DNA of 63,785 nt, filler included, from Reclinomonas americana ATCC 50394 (lineage: Eukaryota), in NCBI GenBank assembly GCA_048213135.1. It is 20 parts of 20 records of this genome, joined end to end, with 100 filler letters (N's around TTAATTAATTAA, not from the genome) between each part and the next. Parts side by side here need not be neighbours in the genome. Positions count along the whole stretch, not along the records: positions 18,081 to 24,100 come from AFZH01017435.1; positions 24,201 to 26,723 come from AFZH01017436.1; 18 more parts are not named here. The stretch is one strand, 5' to 3'. Positions 17,601-58,900 of this stretch are shown one piece after another. Position 1 is the stretch's first letter. Every line of letters begins with the position of its first letter. The position numbers and the translations under genes were made by a program. Below the pieces are notes generated by a model that was not told where the DNA came from, did no database searches, and was given only the letters and a program-made list of their open reading frames with translations.

Positions 17601-20004
17601 CTCGGCGCAGAGTCGCGTGCCCGCGTGGAACAACGCCACGTCGGTGACCACGCAGAGGACGTGTGAGTATGATGAAAAGGGAAAGGGGGGGAGAGGGGGG
17701 GAAGAGGAGAGAGGGAAAGGGTGGAAAGGGAGAAAGGAAACGTAGCAACTCCCAAGATGAGAGGGAAGTCTGTGATTGAAAAGCGAGAAGAAGAGAGACG
17801 ACTGCAGAGACTGGAAAGGAACAGCAGAAGACTGGATGTGCTTTCATTGCTCAGAAAAGAGGCAAGACGCTTTTGACGCAGAAGAGAGATGGTTGCTGTG
17901 ACAGACTGGATGTGGTGAGAAGAAAACTGAATATGCTTTCAGAGCTTATAAAGAGACGAGGCAAACAGTCAAGAAAGAGGNNNNNNNNNNNNNNNNNNNN
18001 NNNNNNNNNNNNNNNNNNNNNNNNTTAATTAATTAANNNNNNNNNNNNNNNNNNNNNNNNNNNNNNNNNNNNNNNNNNNNTGCATGCAATGGAAGAGAGA
18101 GATGGATTCTGAGACTAGAAAGTATCAGCAGAAGACTGAATGTGCTTCCAGAGCTTTGAAAAGAGACGAGACACTTTCGACGCATGCGATGGAAGAGAGG
18201 ATTGCCGAGAAGACTGGATGGGCCGAGGCGAACACTGGCTGTATTTCAGAGCTGCGGAGAGAGACGAGGCACTTTCTGAAAGAGAGAGACGGTTGCCGAG
18301 ACAGACTGGATGTGGTGTGAAGAAGACTGAGTGTGCTTACAGAGCTGGGGTGAGAGACAAGGCGCTGTCGACGCACTCGATGGAAAGAGAAGAAGGCATA
18401 ACTTTCATGCATATGCAGTGAGAAGTAAGACAAAATGTTATTTGCGTAGCATGCCACCTTCTAACTCCCTTCTCCCTCATCCCTCCCTTCTCCCTCATCC
18501 CTCCCTTCTCCCTCATCCCTCCCTTCCCCCCACCCTTCCCCCATTGTGCAGTCGACATCTTCGGCTCCCTCACCGACCTACAGCTCTCACCCGTCAACGG
18601 CACCATCTTCACCAACAACTGCACCCTCACCGTCAACTCGGAACAGTCGGCGCTCATCGAGTACATTGTGCGGCCGCTGAGCGATGCGGACACGAGCTTG
18701 CCGGCCGCCTCGGCTGCCTGGAGCGTGTACTCGGCGCCCATTGTCGTGCAGCAGAGCAGCGTGATATTCACGAGGGTGAGCTGCTATCCACAGACTTGCT
18801 GCTCCCAACATAATTGCATTTGTTTGCTGTCTCTACTGTCCAGCTTAGTTCTTTCTTGTGCTTTGCTTTCGCATCAATCTGTCTCTTTCTATATTGCCGT
18901 TGGTCTCCTGCACTATCATCAATCTGCTGCAATTTTTCATTCTCTCAAGCTCTCATGCTCCCTCTCTCACTCTGTCGTCCTTGATCGATATCTTCTTCAC
19001 TATTGACGCAATTCATCAACAGACTGTTTGCATTGACTGTCGACCCTTATGCTTCTCGCTTGCTGTCTGTATCGCTTTCGTTGCTGCACTCCAGCGCATT
19101 ATCCTGCTTTCATCTCTCTCATCAACTCTCTCTCTCTCTGTACCTTTGTCTCGTTCTCTTGCTCGAGCTTCTCTTTACATGTAGCGATTCACAAGCTTCT
19201 AAGTGTTTCGTTTCTTTCCTCTTTCTTGCTTTCACTCTCTCTCTCTCTGTCGATTTTGCTGCTGCACTCCACACACCTTGTATCCTTCACTTCCATGTTT
19301 CGATCCGTGCTTCTTTCAGTATTTGTAGGTCTCTCTTCCGCTACTTCTCACTCTCCACAGCAAAACAGTAAACATATATTCTTCAATTCCTCTATTGCTG
19401 TGTTGCGACTTGTATCTCAGTCTTTTTTCTTGCTGTGTCGCATTCACAAGCATAACTCTCACTCTTTCTCCTCTGTCTCTCTTTCCTCTCACTTCACCCT
19501 CCCTCTTTTCCTAACTCCTCCCTTTCCTTCTATCCCTTCCCCTCCCCTTCCCTTATATCCCCTTCCCCTTTTCAGGCCTCGAAAGACTTCCACCACCCCA
19601 CCCGCCTCCTCAGCAACCCCCACATCCTCCTCCAACGCTCCACCCTCATCCCCTCCACCGAAATCGACGGCTCGCGCGACCAACCCACCTTTTGGACCGG
19701 CACGCGCGTGGCCTCGATCACCGGCGGCGGCGTGGCCTTTGTCGCCCTCGTCGTCGTCGCCGCCATTCTCATCATCAAGTGCGTGAAGAAAGCCCTCTCC
19801 GCCAAGGGCTACCAGAGACTGATGCGCGACGAGCTGCCGAGCCTCGGCCTGCGCATGGACGACATGCGCGTGGTGGGCGCGGATGGAGAGGGCGAGCAAG
19901 GTGAGGGGGAGGTGGTGGGGGAAATAGGGTTGAGTGGTGAGTCGCTCATCTCTTCCACAGCGCACAGCGCCCAGGGCCTGCCTGCAATGTCGGCTGGCAT
20001 TTGA
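712..20004 (+). CDS. Large multi-exon (roughly 30 or more exons) type-I membrane/surface protein: signal peptide, Cys-rich segments, LamG-like and F5/8-discoidin/F-lectin-like regions, about 10 chitobiase/beta-hexosaminidase C-terminal (Fn3-like) repeats, TM helix, short cytoplasmic tail
   Basis: ATG at 712 gives MREYYLLVLVIAVAISCVAHA (signal peptide). GT-AG exons join in phase, e.g. 889-1028, 1570-1645, 1702-1822, 2127-2404, 3502-3814, 4938-5050, 5116-5335, 5691-5852. WFTADLGTVTDISRVNLYN at ~10535-10590. Repeated PT[IF][TS]PxxGxF...YYTxDG motifs at 10950-18780. Hydrophobic VASITGGGVAFVALVVVAAILII at ~19708-19776, stop at 20004. At least one exon is missing in the 7.9 kb gap, so a single gene is assumed across the gaps. 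Confidence 0.7.
2720..4875 (+). repeat. Local intragenic duplications of exon/intron segments
   Basis: ~2730-3028 is repeated at ~3320-3615; ~3662-4085 is repeated at ~4187-4660; a third partial copy lies at ~4760-4875. Confidence 0.85.
5450..5647 (+). repeat. Intronic 7-bp tandem repeat (GGGTCGA/GGGTTGA/GGGTTGC)
   Basis: Directly visible heptamer array. Confidence 0.85.
6045..7040 (+). repeat. Degenerate intronic minisatellite, unit about 150-180 bp
   Basis: Recurring TTCTCCGATTTTG[GA]TGCGAA..GAGAGAA cores near 6051, 6221, 6391, 6561, 6731 and 6900. Confidence 0.6.
7885..7984. other. Assembly gap with an artificial six-frame-stop linker (first of 19)
   Basis: N44-TTAATTAATTAA-N44 pattern repeated at every gap. 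Confidence 0.95.
16588..17220 (+). repeat. Intronic minisatellite, unit about 60-70 bp
   Basis: Recurring GTGACACTTCTCCTCATC..TTCCTCTCGTTGGAT...GCATGAAGTCGCAGCAC. Confidence 0.8.
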
Positions 20005-20077: not shown

Positions 20078-23000
20078 CTAATGCTGCGGGAACTCAAACA
20101 CGGCGGCGGCGCCCATGCCCTGCAGATGGTAGAAGTGAGGGGAGCAGGTGAATGAAGAGGACAAGGGTGGCAAGCACTCACCGAGCCGATGCACATGGAG
20201 ACCACACCGTACTTGGCATGGCGGCGACGAGCTGTGAGAGGGAAAGGGATGAGAACGACACAGAGGAGAGAGACACGGCCTCACTGCACAACGGCTGCTC
20301 TCTCACCCCCTCTCATTCTCTCACTTCTCCTCCTTGCCGACTTGCAAACATATCCATCCACTCTCACACCGCGACCTCGCATTCTCGCATTCCTCCTCAC
20401 TCTCCGTCGCTCTTCCTGATATCAGCAATGTCGTAATCTCACTGCACAACAGCTCTCTCACCCCCTCTCTCCTTTTCTGATTTCACTCTCACAGCACGTC
20501 TCGCATTCTCTCATTCCTCCCCACTCTCCGTCGTTCTTTTCTGATTTCAGCATTATCATAGTCTCACTGCACAACGGCTGCTCTCTCGTCCCCTCTCATT
20601 CTCTGATTTCACTCTCACTTCCCCTCGTTGCAGACTTGCAAACATCTCGCATTCTCTCATTCCTCCTCACTCTCCGTCGCTCTCTTCTGCTTTCAGCGTT
20701 GTAATTGTCTCACTACACAATTGCTGCTCTCTTACCCCTCTCTCATTCTCTGATTTCACCTCTTTGCAGCCTTGCAAACACACCCATCCACTCTCACAGG
20801 ACGACTCGCATTCTCTCATTCCCCATCACTCTCTGTCGCTCTCTTCTGCTTTCAGCGTTGTCAAAGTCTCACAGTACAACGGTTGCTCTCTCACCCCCTC
20901 TCATTCTCTAACTTGCCCTCCTTGCCGACTTGCAAACATATCCATTCACTCTCACAGCACGTCTCGCACTCTCATTCTTCACTCTCCGTCGCTCTTTTCT
21001 GCTTTCAGAATGTCATAGTCTCACTTCCCCTCTTTGCACCTTCCCCTCTCTTCCCGCTCCCCCTTTCCCTCTCTTCCCCTCTCCACCCTTCCCCTACAAA
21101 CCCTCATGAATGATCTGGGTCGTCAGCTTGGCACCGGTGCACCCCAGCGGGTGGCCGAGAGCCATCGCACCACCATTGACGTTGACCTTGTCCATCGGCA
21201 GTCCGAGCTTGTCACCGCAGTACAGGAACTGCGTGGCGAACGCCTCGTTGACCTCCCACAGATCGATCTGGTCCTGCGAGACGCCGGCCATCTCCAGGGC
21301 GCGGGGGATGGCGTAGGCAGGGCCGACGCCCTGTGGATGGGGGAAGGGAGGGAAAGTGAGGATCACAGAGAGGGAGAAGGTGGAGAGGAACGGAGAGGAA
21401 TGGAGAGAGGAATGGAGACGGGAATGGAGAGGGGAATGGAGAGGGGAACGGAGGGAGGAACGAAGAGAGGAACGGAGAGAGGAACGAAGAGAGGAACGGA
21501 GAGAGGAACGAAGAGAGGAACGGAGAGAGGAACGAAGAGAGGAACGGAGAGAGGAACGAAGTGAGGATCACAGAGAGGGAGAAGGTGGAGAGGGAGAGGG
21601 AAGGAGAGAGGGAAGGAGAGGGAGGGAGAGAGGAACACAGAGAGGAATGGAGAGGGGAACGGAGAGAGGAACGGAGAGAGGAACGGAGAGGGGAACGGAG
21701 AGAGGAACGGAGAGAGGAACGGAGAGAGGAACAAAGAGAGGAACAAAGAGAGGAACGCAGTGAGGAACGAAGAGAGAGGAACGTAGTGAGGAACGGAGAG
21801 AGGAACGCAGTGAGGGACGACTGAAGGAGAGAAAGCGACACATCAGGAATCTCAACAAGTCAAATGACGGCCGAAGGCCAGAATCAGAAACATATCGACA
21901 ACGAGAACAAAAGACAGACAGCGAGAGGGATTGACAGATTGCCAAGAGGGCTTTGAACACGAAAGGAGAAAACACACACGCACAACAGTGTCAACTTGAC
22001 GTTCACAGAGAATCACCAGCAACGGAGCCAAGAAAGCATGCACACTGAGATTGAACATAGAAGCCAAATTAGAGCGAGAGACAGGAAATGATCAAACCGG
22101 AATAGCAAGCACTCGACAACAAGCACGAATGACAAGCAGCAACAGATAACACAATGTTCTCTCACTCACACAAGTACAACTTAGCTCTCAAACAAGCAAA
22201 AGGAATAGACAAATATCGTGACTGTCGACTCTCACTTCACAGAAACACACACTCAAGCGAAGAACAGAGAATGCAAAATGCAGAGCAGCGGAAGAGAAAA
22301 GGAATAGATCATATCAGAACGGCAAACACTCAAACGGCAACAAGGAACACAGCGTCCGCAAACACGAATAATAGGCACCAAGATAGATTTATCTCTCACT
22401 CGCACAAGCGCAACTTTGCTCTCTAACAAGCACAGAACGAAAGATCAACGAGACAATACTGCATTGTCGACTCTCACTCCACAGACAGCAAGCACTCAAG
22501 CGAAGAAAGCACTCACTTCTCGTCTCTTCTCCAATCTCTTCCCTTCTTATTTCTCCGCTCTCAACACTCCATTCTTCTCTCACCACCCTGCTCTCTCCAA
22601 CCTTCTCCCTTCACCCAAACTCTTCTCTCTATCTCTCCCTCCCCACCCCCCTCACCCTTCCCCTGCACCCCCTTCCCCTCTCTTCCCCCCTTCCCCTTTC
22701 GCACCATGATCGCCGGGGGCACACCAACCACCGCAAACGAGCGCAGCGTGGCCTGCACCTGGCATCCCAGTCGGCGAGCCGTGGCCCGCGACATCAGCAG
22801 CAGCGCAGAGGCTCCGTCCGACATCTGCGAGCGAGATAAGTGACAGCCAGTGGACAATCACTTCTCTTGTCAAGCACCTGCGACGAGTTGCCGGCCGTCA
22901 CCACGCCAGTCTTCTTGAACACCGGGCGCAGCTTGCCCAGCACCTCCGCCGTGGTGTCACCACGCAGGCCATCGTCGGCCTTGATCACCACCTGCTTCGT

Positions 23001-26000
23001 CTCCTTGGTCTGGTCGTTGATCAGCACCGTGCTCACCGGCGTGATCTCGTCTGTGAAGAGAGAGAAGTGAGGAGGAGAATAAAACGCCTTCTCTGTACAA
23101 ATCAAACTCACCGACAAACTTGCCAGCAGCCTGCGCCGCAGCCGCCTTGCGGTGGCTCTCCGCCGCAGCCTCATCGAGACGCGAGCGAGGCATGTTGAAG
23201 CGCTCGGCGACGTTCTCGGCGGTGATGCCCATGGCGCTGCAGAGATGGTGAGCGACTTCAATCAATCAAGGCGGAGGACAGCTGGCGGGACGCAACAGGT
23301 AGCTGTCCGCCGCGGCGCCCGTGGCCTGCGGGTTCGGCTTGAGCTTGAACTCCATCGGGTCCTGCGGGGAAGGGCAAGGGGGAAGGGATGAGAACCAAGC
23401 AAGTTACAAGGAATTGTGTCCCTCACAATCTCATCGTCCAACTACGTCACTCAACTCATTCTCACTCTCCTTTGTTTCCCATTCGTTCCCCAAGCCCAAC
23501 TCTCCACGGTCTGACATTCTCTGCCTCTCTCTCTCAGTCACTTTCCTTGCCACTCTCCTTAAATTTGCCACAGCGCGCTCTTTCTCTCCCCCTTCCCCTC
23601 CCGATCTTCCTTCCTCACTCTTCCTACCTTGCTCGGAAGTCTCCTTCTCGCATTGAGAGCATTATCGTATCACCCGCCACTTCTCTCTCCAACTTTATCG
23701 CTCACTCTGCTTCTCCTTCTCTCTTCCCTCTCCTTTTCCGCCCTTCTCTCTCCATCTCTTTTCCCTCACTGTACTTCTCCTTCTCCTCCTCTCTTCTCCT
23801 CTTTCTCCCTTCCCCCTCCCCTTCACTCACCCTGGACATGCTCTCCATTCCCGCGGCAATGCCAATATCATAGTAGCCCGCCTGAATCGCCGACGCCACA
23901 TCGGCAATGGCCTGCAGGCCCGACGAGCAGAAGCGGTTGATGGTGCGCACGGGCACGGTCTCCGGGATGCCCGCCATCAGGCCGGCCACACGGACGTCGA
24001 TCACGCCACCCTACAGAGGGGGAAGGGGGAAGGGTGAGAAGGGGCAGGGGGGGAAAGAGAGGGGTGAGGGGGAGAGCGAGAGGGCAGAGCGAGAGGGGGA
24101 NNNNNNNNNNNNNNNNNNNNNNNNNNNNNNNNNNNNNNNNNNNNTTAATTAATTAANNNNNNNNNNNNNNNNNNNNNNNNNNNNNNNNNNNNNNNNNNNN
24201 GAGCGAGAGGGGAGAGCGAGAAGGGAGAGCGAGAGGGGAGCGAGAAGGGGAGCGAGAAGGGGAGCGAGAGGGGAGAGCGAGAGGGGGAGTGTGAGAAGGG
24301 GAGAGTGAGAAGGGGAGAGTGAGAAGACGAGAGCGAGAGGGGGAGAAAGAAAGAGAGAGATGTCCTTTGTGGAAAATTCTCACCTGCGGCGGCAGCACAC
24401 AACCAACAGTAATGTCACCAATGTCAGCCGGCTTCACCTGCGGCGCGCGGCGCAGCAGGTCCTCGAACACGTGACGGAGCATGACGTCCGGCGCGGTGTC
24501 CTGCCAATTCACAATCAACAACCATTCCGAAACGCCCATTAACCCCATCTCCTTCCACAAAACCTTGAATCCACCGCGGAAGGCACGGCACACAGCCGTG
24601 CGGCACGAGGCCACAATTACAACGTCGGAGTCGTCGTCGCCCGGGTGGATGACGCTGAGCGGCACGTTCTTGTCGGCGTGCTGCGCCAGGTAGGGCGATG
24701 GGCGGAAAAGCTCGACGCCGAAGCGGTTGTGCCACTCGTCGAGCTTCTGGCGGATGTAGCGGGCGCCGATGGAGTCGGCGTACTTGATGAGGCCGCCGCT
24801 GCAACAAGGGAAAGGGGGAGTGAGGAGAAGGGAAGGAGAAGAAAGGGAAGGAGAAGAAAGGGAAGGAGAAGAAAGGGAGATAAGAAGGAAAAGAAGGGTA
24901 AGAAATGAGACTCACGAAAAAGAACGGGGACTACTGAACGGAAGGAGTGAGCTACAAGAGAAACAGATAACAGGGTTGAAGTTCCGCGCATTAAGAACTT
25001 GTGATGGAAAACAAGGAAGTGGAGCAACACAGACGTTAAGTGTAGAAAGAATGGAAGGAGGACGACGAATCGGAAGGCAGAGCGCAGAATGACGAGACAT
25101 GAGATGACGACTCTGCGAATGCACAACAATGAAGAGCAATAGAGGACTCGAGCTGCAAACATGGAAAAAGACACTCGCCCACGGCAACGAGAATGCAGCA
25201 AGAAGAACGGTGACATCCAGTTCAAATCACAGATCACACGTACCGCCACGACGGGAAGCCCATGCCCATGACCTGCAGCGTGAAGATAGTGGGAGTGAGC
25301 GCGCAGTACCCAATGCACGAAAATCCATTTTCTCAGTCACTTGTTTCCTTTCCATGCAACGCTCGCTGCTCTGAGGGCAACGCTCTCTCGCATCTCTCGC
25401 CATTTCCTGGTTACTCTACCACTCTACTGTCCATATTATGTCAAGCGTCGTGTGTAGTACCGCTTGTCCGTCACTCGAAACTTCCTCCAAAACGGCACGC
25501 CTACCACCGTCCGGAACATGCCCCCCGCCACTCTCAACCCCATTCGCATCCCCTTCCTGTGCTTCTTGTCATCTTCTTCTTGTTCCATACTTCATCTTGT
25601 CTCTCTTGTCCTCCACTCACATTCTTCATCCTCCCTTTCCCCTTATCCACCAATCCCTTAATCTCCCTTGCCCCCAACGCACCGACGCCACATCAATGTC
25701 ACTGGAGCGCACGCAAATGCCCTCATCCAGCACACGGCAGGCCTCGTTGATGACGCTGAACCACACCATCTCCAGAATGTCCTGGTCGGTGAAATTCACC
25801 GGCTGCAACCAAGGAGAGTGAGATGGAACTCCACTGGCAGCCCTTCTCCCAATAACAAACCTCTGGGTTGCCCGACAGGCGACGAGCCTCCTGCAGGTAG
25901 CGCGCCACGCCCTGCGCATCCGCCGGTGCCTCGCGCACGCCCTTCTCGTGCTTGTAGTAGCCGGCGCCCGACTTTTGGCCTGCGAACGGAGCAGAGTGAG

Positions 26001-29000
26001 GACAAGGGACAAAAAGGACTCGCCTAATTGCATGACAAACCGAGACGGTTGTCCTTGACCATCAGCGCCGACGCGTGAATCGGGTACGCACGAGCACCGT
26101 ACGCCTCAGCCTGTGCAGAGGTGAGCAAAGCAGTCACGCATGCATTCATTGCTTCCCGGCTCACCATCAAGCAGTGAGCGTGGTACAAAATGTCAATGCC
26201 AGCCATGTCGCCCATGCGGTACGGCTGCAGAGCAAGCAAGTCAGCACCGCTCACAACAAATATCTTTACCAAATACGCAACTCCCTGCGGCATGCCGAAA
26301 GCATTCACAATGGCATCGATGCGGTACGGCTCCACTCCGCGGTCGGTGAGGAAGGCGCACGAGCTGCGCACAAAAGTGAGCCACACTCCAGTGAGCAAGT
26401 GAGGAGTCCCTCGACAAACCTGGAGTACGGGAAGAAAATGCGGTTGACGGCGAAACCGGCGCAGTTGCCGACCACCACCGGCGTCTTGCCAATGGTCTTG
26501 GCAAAGGCGATCGAGTCGACGAGCACCTGAGCGGAGGTGTGGTCCGAGCGGACAATCTCCAGCAAGGGCATGACGTGGGCGGGGCTGCGCGAAGAGGGGG
26601 AAGGGGGGGGGGGGGGGGAGGGGGAGGAGGAGGAGAGAGAGAGAGAGATATATATCGTACCACGTACGCTACTACGTAGTAGTCGTACTACTCCTGTCGT
26701 ACGTACGTACTACTCCGTCCGTTNNNNNNNNNNNNNNNNNNNNNNNNNNNNNNNNNNNNNNNNNNNNTTAATTAATTAANNNNNNNNNNNNNNNNNNNNN
26801 NNNNNNNNNNNNNNNNNNNNNNNACTCTCTCCTTCCCTCTCTCTCTCTCCTTTCCTCTCTCTCCTTCCCTCTCTCTTTCTCCTTCCTGACCATTGCGGAC
26901 TCGACGCTGTCGATCTGCCTCACCTCAATGACCATGTCGACCTCGCCAAAGCCCGACCAGTCCTGCTGCGGGATAAAATTGCCAATGGCCTTGTCGAACG
27001 CCTCCTGCGACAGGCGCTTGGACTTCAGGCGACCCTCCAGAATACCTGCGAGATATAAGCAAAGTGTGACGGAAGAGAGCACTCCAATCACGTCACCTCG
27101 CACACGACCAATGGCCGCATCCACGCACTGCTGGTTGATCTCCTTGACGCGCACCTGCATGCCCTTCAGCAAGGCGCAGACGGCAATGCCGGCACCCATG
27201 AGACCACCGCCAACGACGGCGAGCTGAGCGGGACAAGATGTGAGCACAAACCAACTTGAACAGAAGGGCAGGAGAAACACACCTTGCGCACGACGCGCGG
27301 CTTCAGGCCCTGATCGGTGACGCCGGGCACGTTGACGGTGGCGCGCTGGGCAAAGAAGAAGTGCACGAGCGAGCTGGCCGTCTCGGTGTTGACGATGCGG
27401 CAGAAGGCCTCGGTTTCCTGAAATGGGGGAAGGGAGGGCAAGGGAGGAGAAGGGAGGAATGAGTGAAGGAGAGAGAGAGAGAGAGAGAGAGCATGCAAGA
27501 ATGCGCAGCGACACGGAGGGAGGCGCAGCGACACGGAGGGAGGCGCAGCGACACGGAGGGAGGCGCAGCGACACGGAGGGAGGCGGAGCGACACGGAGGG
27601 AGGCGGAGCGACACGGAGGGAGGCGGAGCGACACGCAGGAGGCACAGTGACACGGAGGGAGAGCCAGAAGGACACAATCCCTTGTGCTTTTACGCAACAG
27701 CCTGCAATCCAGCCTTGGATCCGCGCGTGGCACCCGCCTCCGTCACATTGATGCACTCGACCGTGTGCGTCACATTCGGGTTCTCCTTCTCCGCACGACG
27801 ACGAGCTGCAAGCTCACGTCAGCCACCCTTCCTCCCAACCCTCCCTTCCCCCTTTCCCCTTGCTCACCCTCCGTGCAAATCATCGACACCACGCCGGCGG
27901 CCTCCAGCTTGCGCGTGTACGTCAGCGACTCGCGGCGGGCCACACGGCCGGCGGCAATGTCGAGCGCCAGCTTGGCGGCGTCGGCGACCAGGGAGGCCGA
28001 GTCGCGGGTGATGGCGTCGATGAGGCCAATCTTGTGCGCGTCGGCGGCCTTGACGTGCTGCGACAGCAGCATCATCTCCAGCGCTTTTTGCACGCCCACC
28101 AGGCGGGGGAGGCGTTGTGTGCCGCCGAAGCCTTTATAGGGAAAGGGGGAGGTGAGGGGAAGGAGAAGAGGAGGTGAGAATAAGGGGAAGGGGAGGTGCG
28201 GAAAAGGAGAGGTGGATGTGAGAAAGAAGAGAAGCGATGTGAGAAAAAGGAGAAGGGGGTGTCAGGTTTAAAGAATGAGGGAAGAAGAAGTACGGCAGTG
28301 GGGGGAGGAGGAAGAATGAGGAGAAGGGGAGGTGAGAATATGGAGAAGGGGAAGTGAAATAATGAGGAGGGGATGTGAGAATAAGGAGAAGGTGGGTCGA
28401 GAAAAAGGAGAAGGGGAGGTGAGAAGAAGGAGATGGGGAGGCGAGAAGAAGGAACGGGGAGGCGAGAAGAAGGAACGGGGAGGTGAGAAGAAGGAGAAGG
28501 GGAGGTGCGGAAAGGGAGAAGGGGAGGTGAGAATCAGGAAAAGGGGAGGTGAGAAGAAGGAGAAGGGGAGGTGCGGAAAGGGAGAAGGGGAGGTGAGAAA
28601 CAGGGGAACGGGAGGTGAGAAAAAAGAGAAGTGAAGGCGAGAAGAAGAGGAGGGGGTGCGAATGAGTAGAAACAGAAAGGACAAAGAAGGACAGCAGTGG
28701 CGGGAGGAGGAAGAACGAGGAGGCAACGAACCGGGGATCAGGCCCAGCTGCAGCTCCGGCAGGCCGACGTTCGTGTTGGGCGTGGCGATGCGGGCGTGGC
28801 ACGACATGGCGAGCTCGAGGCCACCACCTGTTAGAGGGAAAGGTGAGACTCATGCAGGGGACATGACAGAAAGAGCGAGCACACGTACCGAAGGCCATGG
28901 TCTCCAGAGCGGCGACGGTCGGCTTCGAGGCGCTCTCGATGGCGTTGAGGGCGGCATTCGTCTCGCTGATGAAGGGCTCAAAGTCGGCGCCTGGGATGCG

Positions 29001-29462
29001 AAGGAGGGTGAGTGAGGTAAATGGAGAGGGAGGAGAGAGCGCGAGATAAAGGAGGAACGGAGAGAGAGCGAGAAAAAGAGAAAGAAAGCAAGAGAGAATA
29101 TGAGAAAGAGAGACGGGAACGGAGAGAGTGGAGAGAAACATTCGAGAGCAAGAGAAAGAGAGCGAGAGGGAAGAACAGAGACAACTGACAACAAAGTAAG
29201 GCAAACTGAGATTTAAAACGCACATCAACANNNNNNNNNNNNNNNNNNNNNNNNNNNNNNNNNNNNNNNNNNNNTTAATTAATTAANNNNNNNNNNNNNN
29301 NNNNNNNNNNNNNNNNNNNNNNNNNNNNNNCTCTTCCTCTTCCCCTCCTTCCTCTCTCTCTCTCTCTCTCTCTCTGCCCTTCTTTGTCTTCACCTCGGGG
29401 TTGAGGTGATTAAGAATGACTTCCTGTCGACGCTGAGCTGACGATGATGATGATGAGGCCAT
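20078..29462 (-). CDS. Single-chain peroxisomal trifunctional beta-oxidation enzyme: PTS2 + MFP2/AIM1-like hydratase-dehydrogenase fused to a KAT/ACAA1-like 3-ketoacyl-CoA thiolase
   Basis: Exon 29394-29462 encodes [23 protein letters not shown]. Crotonase motifs [12 protein letters not shown] and [24 protein letters not shown] (28.0-28.8 kb). [21 protein letters not shown] and [12 protein letters not shown] (27.2-27.4 kb). [13 protein letters not shown] and [13 protein letters not shown] (26.4-26.6 kb). Exon 24564-24798 reads GGLIKYAD...RPSPYL...[11 protein letters not shown] without a stop. Thiolase motifs [29 protein letters not shown] and [14 protein letters not shown] follow, with TAG at 20078. 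A few exons are hidden in gaps. Confidence 0.9.
20280..21020. repeat. Intronic minisatellite, unit about 120-160 bp
   Basis: Recurring TCTCACTGCACAACGGCTGCTCTCTCACCCCCTCTCATTCTC...CACTCTCCGTCGCTC. Confidence 0.75.
21356..21820. repeat. 12-bp tandem repeat (GAGGAACG[GA]AGA / GAGGAACGCAGT) in a thiolase-region intron
   Basis: Directly visible. Confidence 0.9.
27503..27660. repeat. 20-bp intronic tandem repeat GCG[CG]AGCGACACGGAGGGAG, about 7-8 copies
   Basis: Directly visible. Confidence 0.9.
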
Positions 29463-29836: not shown

Positions 29837-32800
29837 TCACATTACAGAGCACCTGCGCTGCCGACGACCACTTTCGGGACCGTGACGTCGCTGTTGCTGC
29901 TCAGATTGGTCTCGACGGCGCCGGCACTCTGAAAGCCACTTGACTGCTCGCACCGTCTTCGGATCATCTTCACCAAGCACCGCTCGCATACCATCCACAC
30001 ATTCAACCAACAGTGCCTCCGCCTCGGCCCATCGCTGCAGCTTCAAAAGTAGGTCACCGAAGTTGTACATCGTCAGCAATGTGTTATAATGCCCGTCACC
30101 AAGCATCTCTCGCCGACCCTCCAAACACTGACGGTACAAATCAGCAGCTTCTGCCAGTGATACTGGCGTGTTTTGTAGCTCGAGAGAATAAGCAAGATTA
30201 TTCATCGACATGAGAGTGTCTGGATGTCGGTCTCCCAGCGATGCTCGCTCCAACTGCAAACATTCTCGTTTCAGTCGAATCTCCTCCTCCAGACGACTGC
30301 CACCTTGGATACATGCGGCAACATTGCCCATGGACGCCAACGTGTCTGTATGTTCAGCCCCGAGAACAAGTCGCCGCATCTCCCAACACCGTCGCCAGAG
30401 TGCCTCAGCATCAGCAAATCGCTTCTGATTGTAGTGGTGCATGCCCTGCCAATGCAGCGTCCACAGCGAGTCCGGATGACTCTCCCCCAGAGTCACACAC
30501 TGCCTTTCATGACACTGCACCAGCAGAGGCAAGTTACCTGAACAGTAAGCAAGCCACATTAAGCACCGCAACGCATCAATCGTATCCAGCACAGTCATCT
30601 CGCCACTGCCGCACCTCTCCCACTCCTCGCACAAACGCCACGCCTGCTGCCACGTAGCTTCGCGTTCGTCCCACTGACGATGTAACTCAAACAATCGCGC
30701 TTGAGACTTGGCCACCACCATGGCAAGCCACCGTCGCACAGGACTCCTCTCAACATCACCAACACCTCGTTGTTCCCATTCTGTCATACGTAGAACAAGA
30801 GAAGTGACCATTGCCGCGTCAAATCCTCGCGATGGAAGACCTCCACAACGCTGCTCACCAATCCACTCGACAGCGCCACACTGCACCAGCAGCCCATTCA
30901 CACCAACAGCATCACTCGCCCACATTCCATCATCTTCACCCAACAGGCGCCACACCGTGTGCAGCACACCGAGCAGGTCTCGCGACACCAGCAGCGCACC
31001 GTCACTATCATTTCGATCGATGCCACTCAGCACGCAGCACACCAGTCGCAAAATCAATCGCTGCATTCGTGACACTGCATCTCCACATCGTCGCACAATC
31101 CACCCAGCAATCTCATCGTGTACTCGATACTCCATCGCCACATCGCCACCCCCTCCCACATGCTCGCCACACAACACACGCGCGACACTGTCCATGCTGC
31201 CACTTACACCCACCGTCACCAGATTCGACATGCACAAACCCTCCAGCACATCCTCCACTCGATCGTCACCACCAACCACCAACGCATCACGCCTTGCACG
31301 CACTCTTCGCTCCTCCTCCTCACTCACCTCGTCAAACTGCAGTCGCTCACCCACCACCTCGGGCGCGCGTCGTCGCCTCTCCTGTGCCAGCTCATGCAAT
31401 CGTAATCGACGCACACACTGACCCAACTCCACCAGTCGACTTGCCGTCTCCTCATTTTCTGCTACTGCAGCCTGCCTATCATCACCACCACCCACAGCCA
31501 CCGCCATATCGGGTATCACTCGCAACACACCCAGCGCCACTCGCGCGAGTGCAACTGTCACTGGTAAGCCGAGTTCCTTGCACGCCGTGATCAGCACCAA
31601 TAGTCGACGTGCTGCTGCTGTCTGCGACATCACATTGCGTTCCAGCAGCTGCGACAACGCATCACCACCAATACCACTCAGCACCTCCTCCAGTCGCGCT
31701 CCCACCAGCTGTGCTGGCAATTGTGACAGCAACCAGCTGCATGAAGAAGAAGAAGAGAAGAGAGAAGAGTGAGTCTTCTCATCCACACCACGTACTCACT
31801 CACTCACTCACCCAACACAAGCACTCACTCGCAGTGCACTATTCTCCTGTTGTCCACTCTCCAGCGCCTCCACAATCCGTCTTCGTACATCCACCGACAC
31901 CTTGTGAAGCAGTCGCTCCTCCACCAGCTGCATGATGTCCTCGTTCTCCACGCTCTCCACTCGCTGACACTCCGCCTCCGCCTCGTGCATCATCGAGTCA
32001 CGAATCTCATCCGCCACTTGTCCATATCGACTCGTCACCACCACAATCGGTGCCACCATTCCACCTGCGCACAACCAGACACATGTTGCACATCAAGTCA
32101 GGATCAGAACATCCACGCAAGAATGAGAATTCTCTCTCCTGAAACGAACCCTCATCAGCACATTGAACAACACTCCTCACTTGCTCCGCCGATCCCACAT
32201 TGTCCAGCACCATCACTCCGCTCGATGCATGCATCAGCTGTCGCACCAGACGACGTGCTGGCTCCACCTCGCCACTCGCCAGCAGCGCATCCACCTGACC
32301 GGCCATCCTCCGTCCCTCGACTTCGTCCACTCGCATCTGTGCCGTCACAAAGGCGCGCAGACACTCGCCCAGTGCACTCTCCGCCTGCAACATGTTGCAA
32401 GGAGAGGGAGAGAGTCAGAATGACAGGGTAGGAGATGGTGCATCAAGAAGACATGCATGTTCCTCACACACACACACACACCTTCACATGCTCCCTCGCA
32501 TCACCCACATGACCACGCATCTCCACCGACACGGTTGATCCCTTCCATCGACGAGTCGCCACCAACTCGGTCACCAGCAGCTCGGCCAGGAACGACTTGC
32601 CAGTGCCACCCTCGCCCGTCAGCACCACCATGATTGGTTGATGGGCTGTGCAAGAAATCATCCATCACAGACAACGTGATAAGAGACACACGAATACGGA
32701 GACGGAAGGAAGGGAGAAAGAGAAGGAACACCCAACCATCCACTGCCGCCACAATGCGCATGGCAAGTGAGGCAGCCAGTGCACGCCGACTCGGGAAGCG

Positions 32801-34283: not shown

Positions 34284-37200
34284 TCACATTACAGAGCACC
34301 TGCGCTGCCGACGACCATTTTCGGGATCGTGACGTCGCTGCTGCTGCTCAGATTGGTCTAGGCGACGTCGGCACTCCTCCAACCACTCGATGGCATCCAC
34401 AGTCTTCGGATCATCTTCACCAAGCACCGCTCGCCGACCATCCACACACTCTACTAGCAGTGCCTCTGCCTCGGCCCATCGATGCTGCCTCATGAACAGC
34501 CTGCCGCAGTTACAGATCGACTGCAGTGTGTTAACATGCCTGTCACCCAGCACCTCGCGTCGTCCCTCCAAGCACTCACGCAACAAATCAACAGCTTCCG
34601 TGCTCTGTTGATTGAGAGAATAAGCAAGATTATTCATCGACATGAAAGTGTCTGGATGCCGATCTCCGAGACCTGCTCGCCTCAACTGCAAGCATTTTCT
34701 GTTCAGCTGAATCACTTCCTCCAGGCGACTGCCATCTTGGATACATGCGGCAACATTGCCCATGGACATCAACGTGTCTGGATGCTCAGCTCCAAGAACC
34801 AGTCGCCGCATTTCCCAGCACCGTCGGAAGAGTGTCTCAGCATCAGCAAATCGCTTTTGACTGTACTGGTGCCTGCCCTGCCACTGCAGAGTCGATAACG
34901 AGTCTGGATGGCACTCGCCCAACGCCACACACTGCCGCTCATGACATTGCACCAGCAGTGGCAAATTGTCTGAATAGTAAGCAACCCACATCAAGCACCG
35001 CATTGCGTCAATCTTATCTAGCACAGTCATCTCGCCACTGTCATCCCTCTCCCAATCCTCGTACAAATACCACGCCTGTTCCCACGCAGCTCGGCGATCA
35101 TGCCAATCCTGTTGCATATTAAACAACCATGCGTGACACTTTGTCATCACAAAACAAGACCGTCGTCGCACTGGACTCATTACAACACCGCCACCTCCAC
35201 GTGCACGTCTCTCGCACCGTGTCACGAAATGTTCAAGGAAATTGACCACCGCTGTGCCGAATCCAACAGATGGCAGCTTTCCCCACGCACGTTTCTCGCC
35301 AACCCACTCAACCGCTCCACACTGCACCACCAACCCGTTCACACCAACGGCCTCTTTCGCCCACATGCCACCGTCGACCCCACCCAACCGTCGCCACACT
35401 GTGCGAAGCACATCGAGCAGGTCTCGCAACACCAACAGCACACCGTCACTGTCCATCTGTGAATCAATGCCAGTGAGCACACAGCACACCAGTCGCATAA
35501 TCAGTCGCTGCGTTCGCGACACGGCATCTCCACATCGTCTCACAATCCACCCAGCAATCTCATCGTGTACTCGATACTCCATCGCCACGTTACTCTCTCC
35601 CACATGCTCACCACAGAGCACACGCGCAACACTGTCCATGCTGCTACTGACGCCCACCGTCACCAGATTCGACACGCACAGACCCTCCAGCACATCCTCA
35701 ACTCCTTCGTCATCACCCACCAACTCATTGCGCCGTGCACGCACTCGTCGCTCCTCCTCCTCACTCATCTCGTCAAACTGCAGTCTCTCACCCACCACCT
35801 GTGGCGCACGCCGTCGTCTCTCCTGTGCCAGCCGATGCAATCGCAGTCGACGCACACACTGACCCAACTCCACCAGTCGGCCTGCTGCCTCCTCATCTTC
35901 ATCCGTTGCCGCCACGTCGTCTTCATCCACACTCGCAGCCCGCTCATTCTCATCGTCATCCACAGCCATGGTCATATCGGGAATCACTCGCAGCACACCG
36001 AGAGCCACTCGCGCAAGTGCCACTGTCACTGGCAAGCCGAGTTCCTTGCACGCCGTGATCAACACCAACAGTCGACGTGCTGCCGCTGTCTGCGATATCA
36101 CATTGCGTTCCAGTAGCTGTGACAGTGCATCGCCACCAACGCCACTCAGCACCTCCTCCAGTTGCGCGCCCATCAGCTGTGCTGCTGATTGAGACAGCAA
36201 CCAGCTGCATGACGAGAAGAGAAGGAGAGAAGAGTGAGTCTTTTCATCCATAAGCCGCTCACTCACTCATAGCACTCACCCAACACAAGCACTCACACGC
36301 AGTGCACTCTTCTCCTGTTGTCCACTCTCCAGCGCCTCCACGATCCGCCGTCGCACATCCAGCGACACTATGCCGCGAAGTCGCTCCTCCACCAGCTGCT
36401 CAATGTCCTCGTTCTCCACATTCCCCACTCGCACAGACTCCACATCCGCCTCGTGCATCATCGAGTCACAGATCTCATCCGCCACTCGCCCATATCGACT
36501 CGTCACCACCACAATCGGTGCCACTATTCCGCCTGCAGAAGGACACGCACGCATGATGCACATCAAGTCAGGATCAAACATCCAAGCAAGAATGAGAACT
36601 TTCTCATGACACACACACACCCTCGTCAGCACACTGAACACTCCTCACTTGCTCCACCGATCCCACATTGTCCAGCACCATCACTCCACTCGATGCGTGC
36701 ATCAGCTGTCGCAGCAGTCGACGTGCTGGCTCCACCTCGCCACTCGCCAGCAGCGCGTCCACCTGGCCCGCCATCTTGCGTCCCTCTACTTCATCCACTC
36801 GCATCTGTGCCGTCACAAAGGCACGCAGACACTCACCCAGAGCACTCTCCGCCTGCAGCATTTGGCATGGAGAGAGAGAGAGAGTCGGAATGACAGCATC
36901 ATGAAAAACAACATGCATGTTCCTCACACACACCTTCACATGCTCCCTCGCATCACCCACATGACCACGCATCTCCACCGACACGGTGGATCCCTTCCAC
37001 CGACGACTGGCAAGCAATGCGGTCACCAGCAGCTCGGCCAGGAATGACTTGCCAGCGCCACCATCACCCGTGAGCACCACCATGATTGGATGGTGTGCTG
37101 CACAAGAATCATCCACCACAGACAACACGATGAGGCACGCGAATGTAGAGAAGGGAGAGGGAGAATGAGAAGTAACACCCAACCTTCAACAGCATCCACA

Positions 37201-55952: not shown

Positions 55953-58900
55953 TCACATTACAGAGCATCTGCGCTGCCGACGACCATTTTCGGGATCGTG
56001 ACGTCGCTGCTGCTGCTCAGATTGGTCTAGGCGACGTCGGCACTCAGCCAGCCACTTCATGGAATCTTCCGTACGCTCGTCCTCGTCACCAAGCACCGCT
56101 CGCCGACCATCCACACACTCTACTAGCAGTGCCTCTGCCTCGGCCCATCGATGCTGCCTCATGAACAGCCTGCCGCAGTTACAGATCGACTGCAGTGTGT
56201 TAACATGCCTGTCACCCAGCACCTCGCGTCGTCCCTCCAAGCACTCACGCAACAAATCAACAGCTTCCGTGCTCTGTTGATTGAGAGAATTGGCAAGATT
56301 ATTCATCGACATGAAAGTGTCTGGATGCCGATCTCCCAGCGATGCTCGCTTCAGCTGCAAGCATTCTCGTTCCAGTTGAATCACTTCCTCCAGGCGACTG
56401 CCATCTTGGATAGAAAATGCAACATTACTCATGAGTGCCAACGTGTCGGGATGCCAAGCTCCAAGAACCAGTCTTCGCAACTCCCAACAACGTCGATAGA
56501 GTGTCTCAGCATCAGCAAATCGCTTTTGACTGTACTGGTGCCTGCCCTGCCACTGCAGAGTCGATAACGAGTCTGGATGGCACTCGCCCAACGCCACACA
56601 CTGCCGCTCATGACATTGCACCAGCAGTGGCAAGTTGCCTGAATAGTAAGCAACCCACATCAAGCAGCGCATTGCGTCAATCTTATCTAGCACAGTCATC
56701 TCGCCACTGTCATCCCTCTCCCAATCCTCGCACAAATACCACGCCTGTTCCCACGCTGCTCGGCGATCATGCCAATTCTGTCGCATATTAAACAACCATG
56801 CGTGACACTTTGTCATCACAAAACAAGACCGTCGTCGCACTGGACTCATTACAACACCGCCACCTCCACGTGCACGTCTCTCGCACCGTGTCACGAAATG
56901 TTCAAGGAAATTGACCACCGCTGTGCCGAATCCAACAGATGGCAGCTTTCCCCACGCACGTTTCTCGCCAACCCACTCAACCGCCCCACACTGCACCAGC
57001 AGTCCATTCACACCAACACTATCATTCGCCCACATGCCACCGTCGACCCCACCCAACCGTCGCCACACTGTGCGAAGCACATCGAGCAGGTCTCGCAACA
57101 CCAACAGCACACCGTCACTGTCCATCTGTGAATCAATGCCACCCAACACACAACACACCAGTCGCACGATCAGTCGCTGCGTCCGTGACACTGCATCTCC
57201 ACATCGTCTCACAATCCACCCAGCAATCTCATCGTGTACTCGATACTCCATCGCCACGTTACTCTCTCCCACATGCTCACCACAGAGCACACGCGCAACA
57301 CTGTCCATGCTGCCACTGACGCCCACCGTCACCAGATTCGACACGCACAGACCCTCCAGCACATCTACCACTCCGTCGTCACCGCCAGCACCCACCAGCT
57401 CATCACGCCGTTCACGCACTCTCTCCTCCTCCTCCTCACTCATCTCGTCAAACTGCAGTCTCTCACCCACCACCTCGGGTGCACGCCTCCGCCTCTCCTG
57501 TGCCAGCCAATGCAATCGCAGTCGACGCACACACTGACTCAACTCCACCAGTCGGCCTGCTGCCTCCTCATCTTCATCCGTTGCCGCCACGTCGTCTTCA
57601 TCCACACTCGCAGCCCGCTCATTCTCATCGTCATCCACAGCCATGGTCATATCGGGAATCACTCGCAACACACCCATCGCCACTCGTGCGAGTGCAACTG
57701 TCACAGGCAAGCCGAGTTCCTTGCACGCCGTGATCAGCACCAACAGTCGACGTGCTGCCGCTGTCTGCGATATCACATTGCGCTCCAGCAGCTTCGACAG
57801 CGCATCACCACGGATGCCACTCAGAGCCTCCTCCAGTCGTGCACCCACCAGCTGTGCTGGCGACCGTGACAGCAACCAGCTGCATGGCGAAGAAAATGGG
57901 AGAAGAGAGAGAAGAGAGTGAGTTTTCTCATCCACGAGCCACTCACTCACTCAGCACTCACCCAACACAAGCACTTACTCGCAGTGCACTCTTCTCCTGC
58001 TGTCCACTCTCCAGCGCCTCCACGATCCGCCTTCGCACGTCCACTGACACCTTGTGGAGCAGTCGCTCCTCGACCAGCTGCACCATGTCCTACAACAAAC
58101 AAAACACTTCATTCACCACATTCCAGTAATGCGACAAATGTCCACAAATCCCTTGCCGNNNNNNNNNNNNNNNNNNNNNNNNNNNNNNNNNNNNNNNNNN
58201 NNTTAATTAATTAANNNNNNNNNNNNNNNNNNNNNNNNNNNNNNNNNNNNNNNNNNNNTTGACCTACCGACAAGTAACCTTGCGGGCACTGGTTGTACAT
58301 CCTGCTGGCATTGCATTTCTGTGAGTGAGGGTCATTCTCCACATTCTCCACTCGCACACACTCCACCTCCGCCTCGTGCATCATCGAGTCACGAATCTCA
58401 TCCGCCACTCGCCCATATCGACTCGTCAGCACCACTATCGGTGCCACCATGCCACCTGTACACAGACACACATGATGCATATCAAGTCAGGATCCAACAT
58501 CCAAGCAAGAATGACGATTCTCAATCTCGTGACACACTCACCCTCATTAGCACATTGAACAACATTCCTCACTTGCTTCATCGATCCCACATTGTCCAGC
58601 ACCATCACTCCACTCGATGCATGCATCAGCTGTCGCACCAGACGACGAGCTGGCTCCACTTCGCCACTCGCCAACAGCGCATCCACCTGACCGGCCATCC
58701 TTCGTCCCTCCACTTCATCCACTCGCATCTGCGCCGTCACAAAGGCACGCAGACACTCGCCCAGAGCGCTCTCCGCCTGCAGCATTTGGCATGGAGAGAG
58801 AGAGAGAGAGAGTCGGAATGACAGCATCATGAAAGAAAACATGCATGATCCTCCGCACACCATCACATGCTCCCTCGCATCACCCACATGACCGCGCATC

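Follow-up and report, generated by a model that had tools for sequence, protein, structure and literature searches.

In the textbook account of β-oxidation, steps 2–4 are carried by two polypeptides, whether these are a multifunctional protein (MFP) with KAT, FadB with FadA or the α and β subunits of the trifunctional protein (TFP); thiolases are obligate dimers. The gene described here lies on the minus strand at about 20078–29462 of a 63,785-nucleotide stretch of DNA from Reclinomonas americana ATCC 50394 (assembly GCA_048213135.1), which is made up of 20 contigs joined by linkers and is referred to below as the window. It is very probably one intact nuclear gene and a member of a fused MFP-thiolase family, encoding a single chain of ~1,100–1,150 residues, 999 of which are visible.

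A three-domain MFP of red algae (Cyanidioschyzon merolae, Porphyridium) was described by Mori et al. 2016 (PMC4928187) and, in the portion of that paper available to us, the fusion is called a 'feature of red algae'. In the available portions of two further papers, 'trifunctional' denotes hydratase/dehydrogenase/isomerase with a separate thiolase (PMC9512073), and Guillardia is given only a bifunctional ECH-3HCD (PMC9244630). A literature search, with subscription journals outside its coverage, returned only Mori et al. 2016 on the fusion and no biochemical characterisation.

The window's protein resembles the red-algal three-domain MFP (C. merolae CMR380C and the Porphyridium purpureum protein, as far as they are presented in the available part of PMC4928187) in domain order, in length (~1,130 residues) and in the place of the junction. 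Red-algal relatives in the databases, such as Chondrus crispus P0030 ('Fatty acid beta-oxydation multifunctional protein'), Galdieria phlegrea P0024 and Pyropia yezoensis P0112, were colinear with it over the full length at 40–43% identity. It differs from them in having a shorter linker, in falling outside their clade and in ending in PQH, whereas theirs end in PTS1-like tripeptides (PTS1, C-terminal peroxisomal targeting signal type 1), for example SRL, SKL, AKM or GKL. It is also like Andalucia godoyi ANDGO_06968 (P0021, 1152 aa, annotated 'Glyoxysomal fatty acid beta-oxidation multifunctional protein MFP-a'), P0005 and P0022 (a EukProt transcript), as all of these are fused, fall in one clade for the MFP half and lack a PTS1. 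Identity to this group is only 42–51%, however; P0022 is N-terminally truncated, and in the assembly the putative exon 1 of the window's gene is separated from the gene body by a linker.

The plant pair MFP2/AIM1 and KAT2 (2wtb; 2c7y, 2wu9) provided the closest solved structures and shares the chemistry and the catalytic motifs, but it consists of two chains, with a C-terminal PTS1 on MFP2 and a cleavable N-terminal targeting signal of type 2 (PTS2) on KAT2. MFPs of the MFE-1 type (MFP2, AIM1, EHHADH) are ~720 residues long and end in a PTS1, whereas the window's chain runs on into a thiolase. That thiolase domain is of the KAT type and is closest in sequence to the free type-I thiolases KAT2, ACAA1 and Pot1 among solved structures, but its N-terminus is internal and carries no PTS2 there. 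FadBA and mitochondrial TFP (1wdk, 4b3h, 6dv2) likewise bring the three activities together, and their α subunits reached target-normalised template modelling (TM) scores of 0.78–0.89 against the MFP module of a modelled homologue. Their α and β subunits are nevertheless separate, assemble non-covalently as α2β2 or larger and contain a thiolase of another subfamily, and the resemblance is functional only.

The junction exon

The original prediction, made from the sequence of the window, placed an in-frame fusion of an MFP and a thiolase within one gap-free exon, and the peptide quoted for it was found exactly at 24797–24564 on the minus strand. Translation of this segment gave 78 codons (GGLIKY...RGGFK) in a single frame with no stop and no Met. 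The exon (24564–24798) is flanked by an AG acceptor at 24799–24800 and a GT donor at 24562–24563, and its base 24798 completes the Arg codon that is split from the preceding 29-nt exon (25244–25272, VMGMGFPSW and the split R, placed by the spliced model and the junction alignment). The N-free contig of 2,523 bases in which it lies (24201–26723) also holds the seven upstream exons of the 3HCDH part and the next thiolase exon. Because the junction exon is inside one N-free contig, the join between MFP and thiolase was not made by a scaffold linker.

Alignment with solved structures divided the exon into three parts. Residues 1–48 (24654–24798) matched residues 669–715 of the 725 residues of Arabidopsis MFP2 (2wtb, E 4.5e-7), and residues 48–78, of which the first thiolase β-strand and the terminal RGGFK occupy 24564–24626, matched residues 21–51 of the human peroxisomal thiolase ACAA1 (2iik, E 0.01). 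Both alignments bear out the predicted joining of an MFP2/AIM1-type C-terminus to the first strand of a peroxisomal thiolase. Between the two, the linker VIHPGDDDS (24627–24653), as read from the junction alignment and the solved structures, connects the MFP2-like ...PLS to the thiolase strand DVVIV; a linker had been predicted here, although at ~9 residues it is slightly shorter than the 'about 15 aa' proposed. It is the shortest in 19 aligned junction sequences, the linkers of which ranged from ~9 to ~40 residues, and it occupies the position of the PTS1 tail in MFP2 and of the PTS2 presequence in KAT.

The junction exon is followed by a 63-nt GT-AG intron (24501–24563), the removal of which gives RGGFK|DTAPD, in agreement with the family consensus RGGFKDT. 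The length of this intron is divisible by three and its frame has no stop, and its retention would add 21 residues after the first thiolase strand with the frame kept.

Gene model

The gene was read as 25 exons with AG at 24 of 24 acceptors, GT at 24 of 24 donors and the frame kept throughout; the number includes a candidate exon 1 (29394–29462), a putative assignment. The spliced model has 999 visible codons and no internal stop. Candidate exon 1 comprises 23 codons with a PTS2-like RQEVILNHL (29403–29429) and then a GT donor. Beyond it, a scaffold linker (29231–29330) covers the N-terminus of the ECH domain, for which homologue lengths gave an estimate of 50–100 codons; the residues ahead of the first visible ECH exon numbered 73–127 in 10 of the 11 homologues examined and 193 in P0030. 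The visible ECH exons are at 28889–28990 (ADFEPF...MAFG, from the spliced model), at 28732–28827, where Pfam and motifs placed both hydratase glutamates (GGGLELA, GLPE), and at 27868–28131 (ECH_1, E 1.5e-9), the best Protein Data Bank match of which was Arabidopsis MFP2 (2wtb, E 2.2e-15).

The helical region between ECH and 3HCDH is encoded by 27699–27805, which has AG/GT boundaries and keeps the frame, and is followed in the spliced model by an exon at 27283–27417 (ETEAF...HFFFAQRAT...). Three exons of 3HCDH_N were identified from Pfam with motifs or the spliced model, at 27097–27223 (with the Rossmann motif GGGLMG), 26924–27045 and 26420–26584. A second scaffold linker (26724–26823) separates the last two and, judged by homologue lengths, covers ~54–59 codons of 3HCDH_N (NTS...HFFS, with the catalytic His); this segment was 54–59 residues in 10 of 11 homologues. 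The spliced model then continues through the 3HCDH exons 26282–26363, 26165–26224, 26041–26110 and 25861–25979 and the exon of the second C-terminal repeat (25683–25802) to the 29-nt exon and the junction. A tblastn search for the hidden ECH and 3HCDH_N segments gave nothing better than E 0.14 in the rest of the window, and misplacement of the hidden exons elsewhere in the scaffold was rejected on this result.

On the thiolase side, the Thiolase_N exon at 24384–24500 (Pfam and spliced model) is followed by an intron containing a third linker (24101–24200), where the alignment indicated that no coding sequence was lost. The nucleophilic Cys (NRFCSS) is in the next Thiolase_N exon at 23831–24010 (Pfam, E 1.4e-18). 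Two exons placed by the spliced model (23297–23361 and 23112–23236), a Thiolase_N exon at 22878–23050 (Pfam, motif GNSSQ) and a further spliced-model exon at 22705–22824 lead to the Thiolase_C exon at 21102–21330, which contains NEAF and GHPLG (Pfam, E 1.7e-30). The second catalytic Cys (SMCIGS) is in the Thiolase_C exon at 20182–20231, and the last exon (20078–20119), which lacks a PTS1 tripeptide, runs into a TAG stop. The order of the contigs looks real because adjoining contigs hold successive parts of one gene.

Domains, motifs and predicted structure

Pfam matched 8 of the 11 open reading frame (ORF) pieces, in the minus-strand order ECH_1, 3HCDH_N, Thiolase_N and Thiolase_C, and none of its families matched the remaining three; the Thiolase_N match of the junction ORF was below the curated cut-off. 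The spliced model contained GGGLELA, GLPE, GGGLMG, LLEIV, FAVNR, NRFCSS, GNSSQ, NEAF, GHPLG and CIGSG, and among these are all of the thiolase motifs and the hydratase glutamates that had been predicted to be intact. Both catalytic glutamates of the ECH domain are thus kept, the N-terminal third of that domain being behind a linker. Two pieces gave Pfam matches to 3HCDH_N, of which NTS...HFFS with its His is within linker 26724–26823, and the thiolase was matched in both its N- and C-terminal domains with the Cys, His and Cys motifs kept.

Columns that were ≥95% conserved in 62 full-length fused proteins were used to assess the spliced model, which followed the family in 206 of the 222 that could be assessed; a further 16 conserved columns fell in linkers and are outside this number. 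The closest solved structures to the thiolase exon were Arabidopsis KAT2 (2c7y, E 3.2e-28), the yeast peroxisomal thiolase and human ACAA1 (to 4.3e-25). An AlphaFold2 model of the Andalucia homologue, made from a 65-sequence alignment, had a mean predicted local distance difference test (pLDDT) score of 90.0 and a predicted TM score of 0.66, with low confidence only at residues 1–7 and 20–49 (the presequence) and 757–760 (the linker). Its best structural match was Arabidopsis MFP2 (TM 0.91, target-normalised), followed by rat MFE-1 and bacterial and human trifunctional α subunits, and none of the 35 chains among the structural matches listed (ranks 1–50) covered both the MFP and the thiolase modules. 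Pfam, motifs and solved structures agreed on the predicted arrangement of ECH, 3HCDH and thiolase in a single chain of MFP2/AIM1 and peroxisomal KAT type. The reading frame of the gene is continuous, its domain content and catalytic motifs are those of the fused MFP-thiolases, and it belongs to that family.

The fused family

A HMMER search of 1.84 billion representative proteins with the junction ORF gave 20 matches at E≤0.001, three of which crossed the junction (best E 1.4e-12), namely P0001, P0005 (1139 aa) and P0009. P0005 contains six Pfam families (ECH_1, ECH_2, 3HCDH_N, 3HCDH, Thiolase_N and Thiolase_C). When its junction region was used as the query, 14 of 31 matches had the full architecture, and a query with P0022 gave 904 matches, with precomputed Pfam annotation showing ECH_1, 3HCDH_N, 3HCDH, Thiolase_N and Thiolase_C in 67 of the best 120. 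A word-based search with the junction ORF, limited to longer proteins, had 119 candidates and none at E≤0.001, and a search of the ESM Atlas returned no usable match.

Alignment of 154 fetched proteins to the spliced model showed that 77 crossed the junction in a single high-scoring segment pair (HSP), and 62 of these spanned from ECH to the C-terminus of the thiolase. P0022 was the nearest relative (one HSP of 1038 columns, 51.3% identity), and identity to every fused family member compared was 40–51%. Named full-length members are from Chondrus crispus, Galdieria phlegrea, Hildenbrandia rubra, Agarophyton chilense, Pyropia yezoensis, Porphyridium purpureum (annotated AIM1) and the jakobid Andalucia godoyi; partial models crossing the junction are from Acanthamoeba castellanii, Compsopogon, Timspurckia and Purpureofilum. 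Transcript-assembly-style names were found on the fused relatives P0022 (transcriptome shotgun assembly style), P0055 (Trinity style) and P0076 (MMETSP), and EukProt entry P0059 is, going by the style of its identifier, presumably from Cyanophora paradoxa. The Acanthamoeba castellanii str. Neff protein P0058 (579 aa), annotated as acetyl-CoA acetyltransferase subfamily, has its start within the C-terminal domain of 3HCDH and continues across the junction; the related P0057 is a full-length protein of 1145 aa. The public gene model of P0058 is probably a truncated fused MFP-thiolase.

The background given with the original prediction, that FadB/FadA, TFP α/β and MFP/KAT are separate polypeptides, is incomplete, as the fused architecture is present in many public proteins (14 of 31 matches and 67 of the best 120 in the two queries above). 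Its presentation of the fusion as a new architecture did not survive the comparison, with the same junction in 77 of the 154 proteins and a red-algal MFP of this kind already in print in the part of PMC4928187 considered here. On its sequence, the window's gene is a divergent member of an existing, widespread and biochemically unstudied fused MFP-thiolase family.

Phylogenetic placement

Trees were made separately for the two halves of the protein. Both were quick trees under a simple model with support from the Shimodaira–Hasegawa-like approximate likelihood ratio test (SH-aLRT) only, and are indicative. The MFP-half tree had 44 rows, from a choice of 25 fused and 22 unfused proteins with four fused ones dropped for want of a full-length HSP. 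It united the window's protein with P0022, Andalucia godoyi and P0005 (SH-aLRT 97) and placed the red-algal proteins in a separate clade (SH-aLRT 100). Unfused MFPs of Pirellulales (Planctomycetes; P0126, P0129, P0140 and others), 39–44% identical to the window's MFP half, were the sister of all eukaryotic MFP modules sampled (SH-aLRT 100), which hints at an old transfer in either direction.

The thiolase-half tree also had 44 rows, from 29 fused and 19 unfused proteins with five dropped for the same reason. The fused domains fell within the eukaryotic peroxisomal KAT group, where the red algae were a clade (SH-aLRT 99) and the other fused forms, together with the unfused KATs of plants, fungi and Amoebozoa, made up an unresolved grade. 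The window's row had a long branch and no supported partner. A red-algal origin of the window was rejected, as its protein is outside the red-algal clade in both half-trees and its C-terminus is PQH with no PTS1.

In an approximately unbiased (AU) test, with one long bacterial row left out, a tree that keeps the 28 fused rows in one group apart from 15 unfused ones was not rejected (p 0.243). This result leaves a single origin of the fused forms neither rejected nor shown. It is conceivable, though we think it rather unlikely, that the fused form has a single origin older than the split between red algae, jakobids, Amoebozoa and the window's lineage. Plants, fungi and animals would on this view owe their separate MFP and KAT genes to later fission, and the window's gene would stand for a branch of the ancestral enzyme that is addressed by a PTS2.

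Targeting signals

The fusion point removes the C-terminal PTS1 of the MFP and buries the N-terminal PTS2 of the thiolase, and both signals are therefore gone at the join. A pattern search of the 77 junction-crossing proteins found a PTS1-like C-terminal tripeptide in 61, most of which have the red-algal endings given above. A PTS2-like N-terminal nonapeptide was found in three, Andalucia P0021 and P0005 (RREVLLSHL / RREVLLGHL) and P0053 (RAQIVLRHL), and the motif of P0021 and P0005 can be written R-x-E-V-[IL]-L-x-H-L. The remaining 13 had neither signal, some of these being truncated models. These figures indicate that the family met the loss of its internal signals in two ways, with a PTS1 at the new C-terminus in the red-algal type and a PTS2 at the new N-terminus.

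The C-terminus of the window's protein, ...VFEFPQH, does not form a PTS1. Candidate exon 1 opens with an ATG 380 nt past the stop of the neighbouring gene, on the same strand. RQEVILNHL is situated 11 residues after this ATG, is identical to Andalucia RREVLLSHL at six of nine residues and fits the strict PTS2 pattern, which occurred eight times in the 127,566 six-frame residues of the window, two of these being the candidate exon and a copy of it. The PTS2-type subgroup (Andalucia godoyi, P0005 and P0053) is marked by R-x(2)-[VI]-[LIV]-L-x-H-L among residues 1–20 together with the lack of a PTS1; in the window this motif is in the candidate exon, which is set off by a linker and repeated in an array of genes for TPR proteins. 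From these features 29394–29462 is probably exon 1, with import of the fused protein by the PTS2 route.

Alternative explanations

Several observations weigh against an intact gene for a fused, peroxisomal enzyme. The two coding stretches that fall in linkers (54–59 codons with the dehydrogenase His, and 50–100 ECH codons) could hide an inactivating lesion, 16 of the 222 highly conserved columns differ, mostly conservatively, and the window's branch is long, at 0.5–0.64 changes per column. The candidate PTS2 exon is set apart from the body of the gene by linker 29231–29330 and is part of a tandem unit behind each of six neighbouring TPR genes, and it could belong to, or also serve, those genes. 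An artefactual join, from a chimeric contig or a collapsed assembly, or a dead gene would be in keeping with a window of short contigs and 19 N44-TTAATTAATTAA-N44 linkers and with a microsatellite-rich region from which two coding pieces are missing. We nevertheless regard this as highly improbable, given that the junction is in the middle of its contig and recurs in 77 independent proteins, that the splice sites are all canonical, that the 999 codons are stop-free and that more than nine-tenths of the assessed conserved columns (206 of 222) are kept.

A different division of the product would follow if one precursor gave two working enzymes, through cutting of the linker after import by a protease of the Tysnd1/DEG15 kind or through an internal start or alternative transcript. 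Peroxisomal proteases cut the PTS2 presequences of free thiolases just ahead of this point, and some multidomain β-oxidation enzymes as well, and the linker is the sole part of the protein that is poorly conserved (~9 to ~40 residues) and of low confidence, with a pLDDT dip at 757–760 in the Andalucia model. Against this, neither the junction exon nor the open frame upstream of it contains a Met and the first Met downstream is beyond the first thiolase strand, which an independent thiolase start would lose; a separate thiolase product from an internal start is unlikely on this sequence. The 19 aligned linkers also have no conserved residue or Cys in common, and retention of the fusion across very distant lineages is easier explained if the covalent link is used. 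Two enzymes from one precursor seem to us an unlikely outcome. The fused enzyme might also be real but cytosolic or mitochondrial, with the RQEVILNHL exon belonging to the TPR genes. That exon recurs at least three times in the tandem unit, the protein has no C-terminal PTS1, and the 13 family members with neither signal include the close relatives P0055, P0054 and P0056, which have nothing recognisable at either end; the C. merolae fused MFP was, in the part of Mori et al. 2016 (PMC4928187) considered here, not seen in peroxisomes when C-terminal-peptide GFP (green fluorescent protein) constructs were used. The nonapeptide does, however, resemble the N-terminal sequence of the closest fused relatives of full length, the gene-adjacent copy of the exon is intact whereas a distal one contains a stop and has HI in place of HL, and both halves of the protein are peroxisomal-type by their closest solved structures. 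A location outside the peroxisome is doubtful, although it carries real weight, and a single fused protein imported through its PTS2 is the reading we prefer.

Predicted function

From the N- to the C-terminus, the chain would consist of a probable PTS2 address, ECH, a 3HCDH of the MFP2/AIM1/MFE-1 type, the ~9-residue linker and a degradative type-I KAT-like thiolase. Going by the chemistry of the respective families, the ECH module would hydrate 2-trans-enoyl-CoA, the 3HCDH module would oxidise L-3-hydroxyacyl-CoA with NAD+ and the thiolase module would cleave 3-ketoacyl-CoA with CoA via an acyl-Cys intermediate. The fused enzyme would in this way perform steps 2, 3 and 4 of β-oxidation on enoyl-CoA supplied by an acyl-CoA oxidase or dehydrogenase. 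These activities, the production of a single mRNA and polypeptide and import through PTS2 and PEX7 are predictions. Dimerisation mediated by the thiolase and channelling of intermediates are reasonable by analogy. The enzyme may form a homodimer around the thiolase pair that resembles α2β2 FadBA or TFP, a guess by the same analogy, and the short linker may keep the C-terminal domain of the MFP near the thiolase.

The neighbouring TPR array and the window

Upstream of the fused gene and on the same minus strand, 29763–58000 of the window is occupied by six tandem units of 4.4–6.6 kb, each with a long ORF matching TPR_10/TPR_12 (E 1e-20 to 1e-28). These ORFs are at 29837–31795, 34284–36266, 40844–42790, 47442–49283, 51347–53224 and 55953–57950. 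The units are 61–98% identical to one another, and unit 1 has an upstream P-loop-like GEGGTGKS exon. The tail of the unit is conserved in all six copies; the 23-codon exon is visible in three of them, the contig ending earlier in the other three. Intact copies of this exon at 29394–29462 and 50909–50977 encode an identical peptide, and the copy at 47004–47072 has CAG changed to TAG in frame as well as HL changed to HI. At 50909–50977 and 47004–47072 alike (minus strand), the exon forms part of the conserved tail behind a TPR gene, with a GA microsatellite and then an assembly gap after it. This arrangement is most simply read as the outcome of unequal crossing-over in the intron 1 microsatellite, by which the 5′-end of the β-oxidation gene would have been copied together with each TPR unit. 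The co-duplicated PTS2-bearing exon could lend the TPR genes a peroxisomal address.

The window is eukaryotic DNA with a G+C content of ~54%. Over its whole length there are 38 runs of 44 N, or 19 pairs, each bracketing a 12-base spacer; the layout is N44 + TTAATTAATTAA + N44, with the spacer read at 24101–24200 and 50743–50842. GA/CT microsatellites surround the linkers inspected (e.g. 24101–24200, 26724–26823, 29231–29330 and 50743–50842). Introns of the fused gene (e.g. 27490–27690, 28150–28700 and 21345–21830, minus strand) are packed with CT-rich micro- and minisatellites, including a ~20-nt repeat at 27500–27680, and the CT-rich intron satellites give long spurious open frames on both strands. 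On the plus strand, an ORF at 19456–20004, for which a membrane-spanning stretch is predicted, runs to within ~75 nt of the stop of the fused gene (20078, minus strand), and this convergence suggests tightly packed genes.

Implications

The fusion itself is already known, and the locus adds to the fused family a divergent member that is not red-algal. The distribution of the family, with red algae, a jakobid, an Acanthamoeba fragment and many other eukaryotic sequences, is broader than a 'feature of red algae'. A natural covalent fusion of this kind would offer a ready-made test of substrate channelling and may be a compact part for pathway engineering.

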